A DNA stretch of 64,000 nt from a virus. Taxonomy: Duplodnaviria > Heunggongvirae > Uroviricota > Caudoviricetes. Below are positions 58,630 to 64,000 of this stretch, piece after piece (position 1 is the first letter of the stretch; every line of letters starts with the position of its first letter). The stretch is taken from positions 1 through 64,000 of IMG/VR virus record IMGVR_UViG_3300048672_000524; one strand, given 5' to 3'. The notes under the pieces were generated by a model. It was not told the DNA's origin. It worked only from the letters and a program-made list of their open reading frames with translations, and made no database searches. A program made the position numbers and the translations under genes.

Positions 58630-58945
58630 TCAATCTGCTGACACAGCCAGAACCAGAGCAGTCAGCGCTTCCTTGGTAGCCTTTTCGAAGCTCTCGAAGG
58701 TACCAGTGGCAACTTCGAACTTAGCTTCTAGAGCCTTAACCAGGTCAGCCTTGGTTTGGGCAGTAGCCTTAGCTTCCTTGTCCTTGGCCTTGTACACGCC
58801 TTCGCGGGTCAGCTTGGCAACCACAGAGCGCACAGTCTTGCCCACTTGAGCAGCCAGGGCCTCCACAGTTTCACCAGCCATGTAACCTTGCACCAGAGCG
58901 GTGGTTTGGGCCTCAGTGTAATTCACAGTCTTTTCGCTAGCCATT
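58630..58945 (-). CDS. small sigma-region-4-like HTH protein, paralog A
   Basis: MASEKTVNYTEAQTTALVQGYMAGETVEALAAQVGKTVRSVVAKLTREGVYKAK; SD AAGGAAA + ATG; ORF-track start trimmed. Confidence 0.55.
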
Positions 58946-59497
58946 TGGATATTTCCTTTATTTGACAGAAGATTAATTATAGAACAATTTAGGGGTTTCA
59001 TCAAGTCGGGATTTCTTAGCGTTTCCGCTTTATCTAATTCTCTCTGATTTCCCAACCGATGAATCTATTATAGACTTTCCAAGTTGCGAAGACAAGTCAA
59101 AAATTCTTCGGCTGTATCTGGATTATCAACTTTTTCGGACAGTTCCATCTCCCTCAATTCTTGAAAGAGGTCGCTATATGAATTGTGGAAATATGATGCT
59201 TCTTGTAGTGACATAATCTCTCCAATGAAAGATATACTATGACTCAAAATTATAAAATTTTCAAATTCAAGTTTTCGCACTAGCTTTAGCACTTGGTCGC
59301 GGAGCACATTCAAGAATTTGCACTAGCTTTCGCACTGGCGCAGCCGGGGGAGGGGAGGTTAGTGAGTACTTACCTCCGTTTTTGAGTGATAGTAAGTGCT
59401 CACGTACATGTAGCGGACGAAGTGAGTGCCAACATACATGTAGCGGACGAAGTGAGTGCCAACTTCTGCAGTTACTGTGTAACAGATGTAACAGCGC

Positions 59498-59527
59498 TTG
59501 ACACGGGCTGGTTTTTCGTGGTATAAT
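59498..59527 (+). promoter_or_regulatory. super-consensus sigma70 promoter (TTGACA-18-TGgTATAAT-TTTGGCGCA), module 2, flanked by TGTAACA palindromes
   Basis: upstream TGTAACAGATGTAACAG; downstream 16-bp-arm palindrome TTGTAACAACCTGTAA/TTACAGGTTGTTACAA (59528-59564). Confidence 0.6.
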
Positions 59528-59580
59528 TTTGGCGCAAACTTGTAACAACCTGTAAGTTACAGGTTGTTACAATTGTGGCT

Positions 59581-59612
59581 AAAAATAACCCTGCGCTTGA
59601 CAGGGTTATTCG
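59581..59612 (-). terminator. rho-independent terminator of the 59614..59961 gene
   Basis: AATAACCCTG...CAGGGTTATT + TTTTAG on minus strand. Confidence 0.5.
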
Positions 59613-59613
59613 G

Positions 59614-59961
59614 TTAGGTTGACTGGCCCACAGCGTAGGCAATTTCATTGGCAACGGATTCTAGCAAACTGGCTTCCGTATCATGCGCGAAACCGTCAAC
59701 CCGACCCAGACGCACGGGCAAACTCTCGCCGTTATACATGCGTGCCATTGCGACATACTTGCCCAGCTTCGGGCGGAACTTCAGTTCACCCTTGCCCGTG
59801 ATTGCAACCGAGAATTCACCCATGTCACTGCCACTGCGACGGATTGCAACAGTCACGCACATATCCGTGTTAGAAAACAGCGAAACTTCGGGCATACCTG
59901 CGCGCATATCCTTGAGCGCTTGCTTTTGGGCACGGGTAGCCTTAGGGGAAGATGCAGACAT
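59614..59961 (-). CDS. hypothetical protein
   Basis: internal start MSASSPKATRAQ... Confidence 0.4.
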   Translation of the reverse strand: MSASSPKATRAQKQALKDMRAGMPEVSLFSNTDMCVTVAIRRSGSDMGEFSVAITGKGELKFRPKLGKYVAMARMYNGESLPVRLGRVDGFAHDTEASLLESVANEIAYAVGQST

Positions 59962-60017
59962 TTTCAGATCCTTTTCACGTTTTGAAGAATTCAGTTTAAT
60001 CGATTTTTGACAAGGAA

Positions 60018-60045
60018 GCAATAGGGGTTTCCCCCTATTGCTTAA
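60018..60045. repeat. palindromic hairpin GCAATAGGGGTTTCCCCCTATTGC, copy 1 (copy 2 at 63579-63603)
   Basis: identical hairpin immediately downstream of paralog B and paralog C stop codons. Confidence 0.6.
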
Positions 60046-60047
60046 GT

Positions 60048-60413
60048 TCACAGCGGCTTGCTGTTGGCCAAGGCTTCCCAAATTTTCTTGAGTGCAGTCT
60101 TGTTCGCCTTCGTCAGCGAGTCAATCTCGCCTTCACTCATCTTCAGAACCGCGCCGATTGCGTCGGCGGTTTCGTCCTTTTTTTGCACGGCTTCACCGGT
60201 CTTAGTCTTGTATTCCTTCGCCTTGTAGACACCCTCGCGCGAGAGCTTGGCGATCACGCTGCGCACAGTCTTGCTCAGTTCATGGGCAATGGCTTCAACG
60301 GTTACGCCTTGCGTGTAGTCGGCAACCATCTTGGTCGTTTGCTCGGGCGTGTAGTTCACAGCCTTGGTGGTCTTGGTGGTAGCAGTCATTTTCAGTATCC
60401 TTTCAGGGAACAA
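60048..60413 (-). CDS. small sigma-region-4-like HTH protein, paralog B
   Basis: VNYTPEQTTKMVADYTQGVTVEAIAHELSKTVRSVIAKLSREGVYKAK. Confidence 0.6.
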   Translation of the reverse strand: MFPERILKMTATTKTTKAVNYTPEQTTKMVADYTQGVTVEAIAHELSKTVRSVIAKLSREGVYKAKEYKTKTGEAVQKKDETADAIGAVLKMSEGEIDSLTKANKTALKKIWEALANSKPL

Positions 60414-60645
60414 GTTGTTTAGAAGCCTAGAGTTTACATCGAAATCTTAGCAGAGTCAAGTGAAGGGTTATTTGCTCTGCTAAGTGGCTCGGTATGCTTT
60501 AGATGCCCCTTACCTTGGCATCGCGTCGGTCATTTTGTTTCCTTTCCTGATCCGATGAATCTATTATGACTTCAGTCGGCATTGTAAGCAAGCGGTTTTA
60601 CAATCTGTTACATCTTCCGCAGTTGTAATAGTTTGTAACAGCCGC

Positions 60646-60675
60646 TTGACGCGGCCCGATTTTTTGTGGTATAAT
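60646..60675 (+). promoter_or_regulatory. consensus sigma70 promoter module 3 (TTGACG-18-TGgTATAAT)
   Basis: flanked by TGTAACA repeats. Confidence 0.55.
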
Positions 60676-60723
60676 TTAAGGTTTTGCCCAAATTTGGTCA
60701 TGTGTAACAGTTGTAACAGCCTA

Positions 60724-60753
60724 TTGACACGCCCCAAAATTATATGCTATAAT
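60724..60753 (+). promoter_or_regulatory. consensus sigma70 promoter module 4 (TTGACA-18-TGcTATAAT-TTTGGCGCA)
   Basis: followed by ATGTAACAAGATGTAACAG and hairpin terminator at 60846-60872. Confidence 0.6.
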
Positions 60754-60845
60754 TTTGGCGCACCCAAATGTAACAAGATGTAACAGCGCCCCGATTTTAC
60801 CATAAAAACCGAAAACATGCAAGGAAAAAATTGTAACAGAGTATG

Positions 60846-62603: not shown

Positions 62604-62689
62604 TTTTCGGGTTCCGTTGCTGATCTAGTGAATAGAGTATAGCAGGCCCATGCCACCATGCAAGGCTTTTTTCTAGGTGCTTTCCCCTA

Positions 62690-62719
62690 TTGACAGCGTT
62701 TTGCGTTTCGTGGTATAAT
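62690..62719 (+). promoter_or_regulatory. consensus sigma70 promoter module 5
   Basis: TTGACA-18-TGgTATAAT; followed by CTGTTACATCTTGTTACAA. Confidence 0.55.
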
Positions 62720-62757
62720 TGGCCCGCGTGCTGTTACATCTTGTTACAATTTGCCGC

Positions 62758-62787
62758 TTGACGCGGCCCAAAATTATGTGGTATAAT
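62758..62787 (+). promoter_or_regulatory. consensus sigma70 promoter module 6 (TTGACG-18-TGgTATAAT-TTTGGCGCA) immediately followed by hairpin terminator 62796-62830
   Basis: AATAACCCACCA-TTT-TGGTGGGTTATT. Confidence 0.55.
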
Positions 62788-62825
62788 TTTGGCGCAAATA
62801 ACCCACCATTTTGGTGGGTTATTGT

Positions 62826-63032
62826 TTAATTGAACAAACCGACAATGTTAGCACAAAGAAACGTACCCTGCAACACAATAAAATTGCGTTGCTTTTGGCC
62901 AACAGCTGACGCAAGCATCAAAACCGACGAAGCGAAAAACAGTGGATAACCGATGTTGCGAATATTCATCGCCACAAGGAAAGAACCGGCTACAGCAAGA
63001 ATAGTTCCGAGGGTTTCTAGTGTCTTGAACAT
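62826..63032 (-). CDS. small membrane protein
   Basis: two predicted TM helices. Confidence 0.4.
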   Translation of the reverse strand: MFKTLETLGTILAVAGSFLVAMNIRNIGYPLFFASSVLMLASAVGQKQRNFIVLQGTFLCANIVGLFN

Positions 63033-63034
63033 TG

Positions 63035-63412
63035 TTAAATCACCATGTTGTGGTAAGTGTCAGGAGGCAAGCCGTATCTTATCATAACGCTTTGCCATTC
63101 GCCACCGTGCCAGCGATTATTTTTTGGCATACCGTACAGGTTTACGGCTACTTGATGCGCTATTTCATGGGGAATTACAACGCGCATCATTTCACCATAA
63201 TTCTCAGGCTTTGTAAAGAATTTTCTAGCCAGAACAATGCGGTTTTGTTCTACCAGATTTTTGCCAGCCGTTGCCGTCATGCGGTTAGATAGCTCCACGC
63301 TAGGGCACGCGTAGCTTGACAGCTGCGGATAAAGGCGGACAAAGCGTGCCCAGACTTCGACAAAACGCGCCTTTACCTGCGCGTCAAGGTTTACAAGGTG
63401 GTTAAATGTCAT
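63035..63412 (-). CDS. SprT-like zinc metalloprotease domain protein (second copy)
   Basis: SprT-like pattern RMTATAGK...IPHEIAHQV...HGGEW; internal start MTFNHL. Confidence 0.6.
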   Translation of the reverse strand: MTFNHLVNLDAQVKARFVEVWARFVRLYPQLSSYACPSVELSNRMTATAGKNLVEQNRIVLARKFFTKPENYGEMMRVVIPHEIAHQVAVNLYGMPKNNRWHGGEWQSVMIRYGLPPDTYHNMVI

Positions 63413-63482
63413 GCTGCCAGTATAGCATAAAATTCGACCAGTGTGCATACCCTACAAGTTACATGTTGTTACAATTAATTTG

Positions 63483-63512
63483 TTGACACCCCCTAAAATT
63501 ATATGCTATAAT
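63483..63512 (+). promoter_or_regulatory. consensus sigma70 promoter module 7 (TTGACA-18-TGcTATAAT-TTTGGCGCA)
   Basis: followed by TTGTTACAATTGGTTACAATT and bidirectional terminator 63545-63580. Confidence 0.6.
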
Positions 63513-63544
63513 TTTGGCGCAACTTTGTTACAATTGGTTACAAT

Positions 63545-63580
63545 TATCCAACAAAAAAGCCACGGAAAACCGTGGCTTTT
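63545..63580. terminator. bidirectional rho-independent terminator
   Basis: AAGCCACGG-AAAA-CCGTGGCTT flanked by A/T runs. Confidence 0.6.
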
Positions 63581-63603
63581 TCAATAGGGGTTTCCCCCTA
63601 TTG

Positions 63604-63972
63604 TTATTCGACCGAAGTATCCGCGACTGACCAGCCTTTCGGCAAGCGGTTAGCCTTGAGCATGGCCAACACCTTGACAAGCGCAGTCTTGTTCGCCTTG
63701 GTCAGCGAGTCAATTTCACCCTCGCTCAGGCCAGCCAACTTGCCGATTTCATCGGCAGTTTCATCCTTCTTGACCGGCACCGTGCCTGCCTTGGTCTTGT
63801 ATTCCTTCGCCTTATACACCCCTTCGCGGGACAGCTTAGCGATGATGCTTCGCACAGTCTTTCCCATTTCAGTTGCAAGGGTTTCAACGGTCACACCGGC
63901 CGCATAGTCCGCCACCATCTTGGTGGTTTGTTCCGGGGTGTAGTTCACAGCCTTTTCAGTCTTTGCAGTCAT
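63604..63972 (-). CDS. small sigma-region-4-like HTH protein, paralog C
   Basis: MTAKTEKAVNYTPEQTTKMVADYAAGVTVETLATEMGKTVRSIIAKLSREGVYKAK; near-identical N-domain to paralog B. Confidence 0.6.
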   Translation of the reverse strand: MTAKTEKAVNYTPEQTTKMVADYAAGVTVETLATEMGKTVRSIIAKLSREGVYKAKEYKTKAGTVPVKKDETADEIGKLAGLSEGEIDSLTKANKTALVKVLAMLKANRLPKGWSVADTSVE

Positions 63973-64000
63973 TTCAATTTCTCCAGGTAAAAACACAGTT

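Follow-up and report, generated by a model that had tools for sequence, protein, structure and literature searches.

An exonuclease in the A1 slot and an array of antisense promoters in a probable T5-type pre-early region of an uncultivated phage

From ~57.3 kb to its end, the 64-kb window analysed here (positions 1 to 64,000 of IMG/VR virus record IMGVR_UViG_3300048672_000524) carries a cassette of minus-strand genes encoding a homologue of the T5 deoxynucleoside-5'-monophosphatase (Dmp), three DNA-binding proteins of the T5 A2 family, a divergent DEDDh 3'-5' exonuclease, two SprT-like metalloproteases and a small membrane peptide, with near-consensus sigma-70 promoters on the opposite strand. 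All open reading frames (ORFs) listed in an earlier examination of this DNA from its letters alone (the sequence-only reading) were present, on the minus strand; the promoter array formed no part of that reading. We consider it probable that this block represents nearly all of the pre-early (first-step-transfer type) region with which an uncultivated T5-like phage takes over its host, that the exonuclease stands where T5 has A1 and that the antisense promoters act as a brake on the cassette, a judgement that covers all three parts of the reading together. Its new elements are the replacement of A1 in a T5-type pre-early region and a conserved array of consensus promoters that point the wrong way.

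Two of the three classical T5 pre-early genes were identified in the cassette. The product of 62118..62603 (-), a protein of haloacid dehalogenase (HAD) fold with a DMDGT motif, is a homologue of T5 Dmp (BLASTP, 34% identity over 88 aa, E 4e-15), carries PF26880 (Phage_T5_dNMPase) as a precomputed annotation on a Logan contig, and is matched over residues 1-88 only by 583 cultured phage records, those listed being mostly annotated as dNMPase; at 161 aa against the 244 aa of T5 Dmp, only its N-terminal catalytic half can be aligned. The helix-turn-helix (HTH) proteins HTH1 (58630..58944, the last gene of the cassette), HTH2 (60048..60389) and HTH3 (63604..63972), all on the minus strand and with adjusted starts, were confirmed as paralogs by a 179-nt repeat family (D1) and by protein alignment, and HTH3 also falls in phrog_323. 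PF26822 (Phage_T5_A2) is precomputed on HTH1 and most of its homologues, and a profile of the family, to which HTH2 belongs, aligned with T5 A2 over 98 columns (hhalign probability 86.4%, E 4.6e-6), pairwise BLAST against T5 A2 being marginal only. A fourth A2-like paralog, HTH0 (56945..57253, +), recognised by the Pfam HTH_7 family, phrog_323/1725 and alignment to the A2 family, lies on the early-region side and is convergent with the cassette. A JGI protein (Joint Genome Institute) identical to P0121, which corresponds to window positions 58630..59055, is named a 'branched-subunit amino acid permease' and is a misannotated A2-family DNA-binding protein. The HAD phosphatase and the three HTH paralogs of the sequence-only reading are thus real, and the comparison with T5 dmp and A2 that it had proposed made them more specific and added a paralog. 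Its likening of the region to the T5 pre-early region likewise stands, and on firmer ground than that reading had supposed, given Dmp, the A2 proteins, the position between small terminase and early genes, an ORF-poor convergence gap and codon usage, but its statement that the gene content differs does not, as only A1 is missing.

Where the contig of a relative includes both flanks, the block is found between the gene of the small terminase (terS), after which HTH3 is the first gene, and a conserved early-side pair made up of HTH0 and the adjoining p334; beyond terS come the terminase, portal and capsid genes, encoded on the opposite strand to that of the cassette genes. On the T5 map, this is where the terminal repeat would fall in an assembly that collapses repeats, and a 103,964-bp JGI contig bearing a protein identical to that of one cassette gene fits a T5-sized genome with a collapsed repeat. 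At least 89 IMG/VR contigs carry the exonuclease and at least 252 a dmp homologue. Gene presence was counted in 150 related loci, and 114 distinct loci represent the exonuclease clade. The cassette is hyperplastic, with at least 15 gene orders assembled from the same parts among relatives. Between the cassette and HTH0, the ORF-poor gap at 57254..58629, which contains palindromes and repeats, is a positional analogue of the untranslated iss zone of T5; such a gap occurs family-wide (median 1.4 kb in 55 loci), its sequence not being conserved.

Compared with the T5 pre-early region (the left terminal repeat with dmp, A1, A2 and iss), the cassette likewise sits between the late (terminase) end and the early genes, and likewise combines a Dmp homologue and A2-family proteins with a small membrane protein, strong sigma-70 promoters and a long, apparently untranslated zone in which repeats and palindromes abound and pre-early and early transcription would converge. 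It differs in having a DEDDh exonuclease in place of A1, two SprT-like proteases, A2 as three to four paralogs and a Dmp that lacks the C-terminal half of the T5 enzyme; moreover, its genes are transcribed inwards, those of the T5 dmp-A1-A2 operon outwards to the genome end, its strongest promoters are antisense, and it has no cluster of DnaA boxes. Gene homology of Dmp and A2, the position between terS and early genes, and codon usage are three independent lines that argue for homology with the T5 region. By analogy with T5, the block would belong to a terminal repeat, enter the cell first and be expressed at pre-early times, with host sigma-70 RNA polymerase, still unmodified, transcribing it from sense promoters of moderate strength.

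Elsewhere, the window carries replication genes (ribonucleotide reductase, SbcCD-like, helicases, DNA polymerase), 23 tRNA genes, a transfer-messenger RNA (tmRNA) and a group I intron. Because its DNA polymerase shares 51% identity with the counterparts in Vibrio T5-like phages (Demerecviridae), and megablast of 56.5-64 kb gave no nucleotide match in cultured phages, the window appears to derive from a distant, uncultivated T5-like phage. Against this background, maximum likelihood placed a single GC change point at 56,010, where GC rises from 38.7% on the left side to 45.5% on the right, and the GC-richest 6.5-kb segment (start 57,251) reached 45.7%, ~3 standard deviations above the mean of all such segments (39.1%, standard deviation 2.2%) and followed by a tier at ~41.6%. 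Computation therefore upheld the compositional shift seen by eye in the sequence-only reading, but neither its size (48-50%) nor its start (~57.4 kb). Sliding-window GC and codon usage located the shift mainly at third codon positions, where GC content (GC3) is 0.52 in the cassette against 0.28 in replication-region genes, single genes ranging from 0.34 to 0.70 in the former and from 0.24 to 0.31 among the polymerase, helicase and SbcC genes. Ten of the 23 tRNA genes (25346-47130, -) have U34 anticodons that read NNA codons, and within their codon boxes the NNA codons cognate to phage tRNAs make up 203 of 653 (31%) in the cassette compared with 2055 of 4192 (49%) in replication-region genes. 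Low NNA use would be expected if the cassette were translated before later-entering tRNA genes reach the cell, so that both the higher GC3 and the avoidance of phage-tRNA codons may result from translation with host tRNAs only, which offers a functional account of the GC shift. It also suggests a general signature by which first-entering DNA could be recognised in the genomes of tRNA-carrying phages.

A compositional change as abrupt as this one, in a block with numerous accessory genes and repeats, could also mark a recently acquired foreign island (a moron or mobile element) with no functional definition as a pre-early region. We regard this as very improbable: the block, its position and its higher GC are common to >100 relatives, the A1-bearing locus L098 among them, with protein identities as low as 55%; the T5-type genes within it are vertically inherited; and the concentration of the shift at third positions, together with the avoided phage-tRNA codons, points to translational selection.

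The gene directly after dmp in most gene orders, at 61319..62017 (-) in the window, encodes the 232-aa exonuclease. Residues D11, E13, D113, H188 and D193, the five catalytic residues of the DEDDh group (DnaQ, RNase T, Orn, TREX), are invariant in 19 homologues at 56-88% identity, and the AlphaFold model (AF2; predicted local distance difference test 82.3, predicted template modelling score 0.82) retrieved almost only DEDD exonucleases in Foldseek (probability up to 1.00). The best matches in the PDB were Orn/REXO2, TREX1/2, ERI2, ExoI and the exonuclease (proofreading) domains of polymerases. The window protein has no direct Pfam match, no PDB match by sequence profile and no tblastn match among cultured phages; a distant family member, P0362, reaches PF00929 at 24.9 bits (gathering score 24). 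Residues, predicted fold and this distant member support the DnaQ-like exonuclease named in the sequence-only reading, as a separate and small family whose template modelling (TM) scores to known DEDDh structures are only 0.45-0.51. The family is compact (~230 aa, without an extra DNA-binding domain) and comprises 434 clusters at 50% identity and ~3,000 at 90%, with no names or annotated domains among the members listed for the former and no names or Pfam domains among the 120 listed for the latter. Fusions of the exonuclease domain are rare: P0273 (628 aa) joins it to leucine-rich-repeat-variant/HEAT repeats and P0281 to an unannotated 300-aa extension. One natural fusion to a HAD phosphatase, P0374, was found; as a fusion to Dmp it was rejected, a generic DxDGT motif being all that the two phosphatases have in common.

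In T5, the slot after dmp belongs to A1, a gene reported from 227 of 227 Demerecviridae genomes, as a hallmark of the family, as necessary and sufficient for host DNA degradation, as acting in second-step transfer and as dampening pre-early promoters via RNA polymerase (10.64898/2026.04.02.716235). A tblastn search with T5 A1 found nothing in the 64-kb window or in 147 related loci, ~40 kb of the genome lying outside the window and not being covered. Sister phages do carry the gene: in L098-L100, a full-length homologue (39% identity to T5 A1, E 1e-104) lies directly downstream of dmp and the exonuclease is missing, and L156-L158 are likewise A1-bearing after dmp and free of the exonuclease. 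The order in L156 is terS / SprT2, membrane peptide, dmp, A1, A2-like … HTH0, p334, and its terminase shares 73% identity with the L007 terminase, from a locus with the exonuclease. Counted over distinct loci, the exonuclease occurs without A1 in 114, A1 without the exonuclease in five, and the two together in none. When all IMG/VR contigs were scanned with an A1 profile, 106 relatives were recovered, down to 31% identity, and none of the 80 loci listed sat on an exonuclease-bearing contig, nine contigs of 82-128 kb included. A 266-aa metallophosphoesterase (53098..53898, +; PF00149, phrog_1649) in the early-side block, kept in some relatives, was rejected as a hidden A1, since by BLASTP a generic GHxH motif is all that it has in common with A1.

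As the exonuclease and A1 are mutually exclusive and occupy the same slot after dmp in sister phages, the exonuclease appears, on this synteny, to have replaced A1 without being its orthologue. Each of the two is a predicted metal-dependent nuclease (for A1, see 10.64898/2026.04.02.716235), but their build is quite different: a 232-aa DEDDh/RNase H-like exonuclease against a 556-aa predicted metallophosphatase, with no sequence similarity and nothing to indicate that the exonuclease binds RNA polymerase, A2 or membranes. Its position beside dmp in most gene orders, the chemistry of the two enzymes and, weakly, the single exo-HAD fusion suggest that it has taken over the DNA-degrading role of A1. 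Exonucleases of the 3'-5' type release 5'-deoxynucleoside monophosphates (5'-dNMPs), and Dmp hydrolyses 5'-dNMPs; the exonuclease would thus digest host DNA from its 3' ends to 5'-dNMPs, which Dmp would then dephosphorylate, while the A2 paralogs would bind DNA for resumed transfer, regulation or both.

Three aspects of T5 infection have been open questions for decades, namely the stop and restart of DNA entry, the degradation of host but not of self DNA, and pre-early shut-off, and all three are tied to A1. A clade that breaks the rule that A1 is universal, and that is plentiful in metagenomic data, with 114 or more distinct loci and exonucleases in ~3,000 clusters at 90% identity, therefore offers a natural experiment in which Dmp and A2 are kept, A1 is swapped for an unrelated exonuclease and the functions of A1 can be separated. 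Candidate genes for testing (the exonuclease, the SprT-like proteases and the A2 paralogs) come together with candidate cis elements, the antisense operator-promoters.

Six of these near-perfect sigma-70 promoters lie antisense to the cassette on the plus strand of the window, one or two per larger intergenic gap, four matching the consensus at 12/12 with a TG extension and two at 11/12. The outermost (63483..63512; TTGACA-18-TGcTATAAT, 12/12) faces the 3' end of HTH3, with a bidirectional terminator after it at 63546-63577. Two (62690-62719, 12/12; 62758-62787, 11/12, with a hairpin at 62797-62823) face the unit of SprT2 and the membrane peptide, two (60646-60675, 11/12; 60724-60753, 12/12, with a hairpin at 60853-60877) face the dmp-exo-SprT1 unit, and one (59498-59527, 12/12, with hairpins at 59526-59586 and 59583-59610) faces the HTH2-p155 unit. 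A further promoter of the family type (57512-57541, +, 11/12), in the convergence gap, points at HTH1. The sense promoters of the cassette are weaker, of the type TTGnnn-N16/17-TGnTATACT.

This arrangement is a property of the clade. Exact promoter matches in the 114 exonuclease-clade loci number 328 antisense vs 25 sense, whereas the A1-bearing sister loci have one antisense vs four sense in 72 kb, and T5 has no such array; an antisense site outscores every sense site in 263 of 313 intergenic regions (155 perfect, TG included). Conservation covers the -35, the TG, the -10 and the first eight transcribed bases, the spacer being variable, and spacer and -10 often form a palindrome, GCGCCAAAATTATA-TGN-TATAATTTTGGCGC, which we hypothesise to be an operator, perhaps for an A2 paralog. 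A sense promoter hidden in the palindrome was rejected by eye, there being no usable -35 at 16-18 nt. A perfect hairpin follows within 120 nt after 70% of the antisense promoters, and a conserved small RNA or peptide downstream of them was rejected, nothing being conserved among relatives beyond +8. In the window, direct and inverted TGTAACA/TGTTACA repeats at ~10-11-nt spacing flank the antisense promoters (59470-59575, 60620-60790, 62726-62757, 63451-63545); they were rejected as a family-wide operator, having no fixed register in relatives and being specific to this phage, and may be a phage-specific operator.

Our favoured hypothesis is that the array acts in cis to hold back or insulate pre-early transcription, whether through interference, as a roadblock or by antisense RNA, and we favour it because A1 dampens pre-early promoters in T5: the antisense promoters would act as a built-in brake or insulator, standing in for A1-dependent shut-off. 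The convergent pR/pL interference switch of coliphage 186, in which a strong promoter opposes a weaker one across a transcription unit (PMC5001618), is comparable, although here the arrangement is repeated five to seven times in a 7-kb block, a hairpin usually lies between the promoters and there is no identified repressor. A wider proposal, which we advance tentatively and hold to be distinctly unlikely in its entirety, is that the clade without A1 split the three jobs of A1, with DNA degradation passing to the exonuclease and shut-off or limitation in cis to the operator-bearing antisense array, possibly under the control of A2 paralogs. If true, this would be an undescribed way to time the first phage genes without a polymerase-binding protein, and two-step DNA entry, should it still occur, would be independent of A1.

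The promoters might instead not regulate the cassette at all. Being hyperplastic, with its many gene orders, and placing an antisense promoter just ahead of the mobile SprT2 module in 72 of 84 cases, the cassette recalls the plastic early regions of T4-type phages, in which units of a stem-loop and a sigma-70 promoter (promoter-early stem-loop, PeSL) recur among small early genes and modules are shuffled (PMC2839356, PMC4122927), and the array could likewise consist of recombination joints of incidental orientation. Alternatively, it could consist of leftward late promoters that, in concatemers or in the right-hand repeat copy, drive transcription towards the small terminase, terminase, portal and capsid genes on the same strand; the promoters do share the direction of terS and terL, and some relatives have one directly upstream of terS. 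The promoter repeats probably do contribute to gene-order shuffling as recombination joints, but as a full explanation we find either version possible and rather unlikely. The strand bias (328 vs 25) and the conservation of -35, TG and -10 around a variable spacer point to selection on promoter function in this orientation, and the way from the promoters to terS is interrupted by hairpins, among them strong bidirectional terminators such as that at 63546-63577. Moreover, PeSL promoters are oriented towards the gene downstream, with a Shine-Dalgarno sequence after them, unlike those of the array, which face the 3' end of the upstream gene (opposite strand in 328 of 353) and have a palindromic, operator-like core.

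Several observations weigh against the favoured reading of a pre-early region with an exonuclease for A1 and a promoter brake. DnaA boxes, prominent in the T5 iss, are absent from 56.6-58.6 kb and not enriched in the window, so that a cluster of the T5 iss type was rejected. Terminal repeat, genome end and two-step entry we infer from synteny alone, and contig break points give no clean repeat boundary; scattered over paralogs and repeats, they were rejected as a proxy for such boundaries. An own-strand terminator follows only ~28% of the antisense promoters, with nothing conserved downstream, and a constitutively stronger antisense promoter would seem to hinder the very genes needed first. 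The link between loss of A1 and gain of the array depends on ~4 independent genomes with A1, and one phylogenetic event could account for it. As to the exonuclease, a DEDDh enzyme requires 3' ends, and no endonuclease was identified in the cassette; A1 acts in second-step transfer too, and nothing indicates that the exonuclease can. Its closest structural matches are oligoribonucleases (Orn/REXO2), and its substrate could be short oligonucleotides or RNA.

On this evidence, the exonuclease might be an Orn-like degrader of oligonucleotides, the functions of A1 being absent or performed by other genes; it would then either finish fragments made by another nuclease, of host or phage, and so supply Dmp, or act in anti-defence by destroying linear oligonucleotides that serve as signals or primers. 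The top structures, Orn and REXO2, are bound to dinucleotides, the compact family without an extra DNA-binding domain and the missing endonuclease partner would be in keeping with such an enzyme, and the exo-HAD fusion would suit a pair for nucleotide salvage or clearing. Yet the exclusion with A1 is strict and in the same slot beside dmp, and TM to Orn is only ~0.5, with similar values for TREX1/2, ExoI and polymerase proofreading domains, and we judge an Orn-like role unlikely, preferring the degradation of host DNA.

Both SprT-like calls of the sequence-only reading were upheld, SprT1 (60871..61242, -; HEICH) at 32.2 bits and SprT2 (63035..63412, alternative start 63448, -; HEIAH) at 49.9 bits exceeding the Pfam gathering cut-off of PF10263 (25.6 bits), each motif with a downstream His. 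Against NF003421 (bacterial SprT), SprT2 scored 48.6 bits (cut-off 175), over model positions 31-117 of 170 only. The two have the active-site segment alone in common. They share the HExxH...H core of SprT, Wss1, Spartan and ArdC but are catalytic cores only (~120 aa), with neither a zinc ribbon nor the single-stranded DNA-binding domain of ArdC. Present in 122 of 150 related loci, SprT2 is usually followed directly by the membrane peptide, a hydrophobic protein of 68 aa (62826..63032, -; weak similarity to the PnuC N terminus, E 0.0056) that travels with it and occurs in 115 of the 150; SprT1, an accessory gene, occurs in seven. By analogy with Wss1/Spartan and ArdC, the proteases may, speculatively, remove DNA-bound host proteins or defence complexes.

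The sequence-only reading had suggested that the SprT pair and the exonuclease could form one novel module, unrelated in content to T5, that would process host DNA or DNA-protein crosslinks or counter defence. A precedent exists in the SprT/Wss1-like protease domain of ArdC, encoded on the first-entering DNA of plasmid R388, which overcomes restriction in the recipient (PMC7213743), and the cassette SprT genes, too, lie on DNA expected to enter a new cell first. Matches to SprT2 among cultured phages are confined to five Vibrio phages of 145-150 kb, with none in T5-like phages of Escherichia, Salmonella or Klebsiella; and PADLOC gave no meaningful match for any of 10 cassette proteins, which speaks against known defence genes, PADLOC and NCBIfam scans together yielding nothing beyond SprT. 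We nonetheless consider a single module improbable. The dmp and A2 homologues make the block homologous to the T5 pre-early region, SprT2 is linked with the membrane peptide, its position varying relative to that of the exonuclease, SprT1 is rare, and it is the exonuclease alone that alternates with A1. L098 has both SprT types, an SprT1-like gene following A1, and L156 has SprT2, each with A1 and without the exonuclease; the SprT-like proteases thus appear to be older members of the cassette of this clade and no part of the replacement of A1.

The remaining cassette ORFs are small. An accessory ORF, p155/p135 (59614..60021, -), called as a 135-aa gene on the Logan contig and present in 10 of 150 loci, has no match in Pfam, PHROGs, NCBIfam or PADLOC. 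A putative coding ORF of 81 aa and low GC (59068..59313, -; GC3 0.34) has no family matches and is not called on the Logan contig. T5.005 was rejected as a counterpart of the membrane peptide and T5.011 as a counterpart of the 334-aa ORF, neither showing similarity. Within the convergence gap, a perfect 18+18 palindrome, or terminator, at 57617-57652 and a 21-nt inverted repeat (58442/58542) flank ~0.9 kb of ORF-free DNA at ~47% GC (57650-58550). This stretch is conserved in no related locus, so that a conserved structured RNA was rejected, and in a permissive Rfam scan of 56.6-64 kb no family exceeded its gathering score. A 17-nt tandem repeat, CGCTGTACTTGCGCTAA, with ~4.5 copies at 56649-56750, closely follows the 334-aa ORF, and a ~68-nt repeat containing a hairpin, TTGCGCCAAGTG…TTGCGCAAGCC, occurs in three copies around HTH0 (56711/57240/57434), where Logan assemblies break.

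Further observations concern the rest of the phage and its relatives. A permuted two-piece tmRNA of betaproteobacterial type (25960-26419, -; ARAGORN; Rfam RF04321 at 118 bits and RF01850 at 105 bits), with predicted tag ANDSIFEVRLAA, is unusual phage cargo and hints at a betaproteobacterial host. A group I intron match (RF00028, 60.7 bits vs a gathering score of 50) at 28777-28972 (-) overlaps the start of ORF 28912..29403. The DNA polymerase gene (12147-15499, -) is split, residues 2-596 of the pVp-1 polymerase corresponding to 15499..13790 and residues 597-795 to 12680..12147, by a 1.1-kb insertion that holds a 284-aa ORF (12721..13575) unrelated to polymerase; this may be a mobile intron or a homing-endonuclease insertion, Rfam having flagged no intron at that site. 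In the relative L059, a 128-kb contig, the interval 1671-5757 between terminase and small terminase holds ORFs that, by eye only, resemble host-derived metabolic genes: IscU/IscA-like Fe-S assembly proteins, a glycosyltransferase, an LpxH-like phosphoesterase, an aldolase-like protein and a BAX-inhibitor-like membrane protein.

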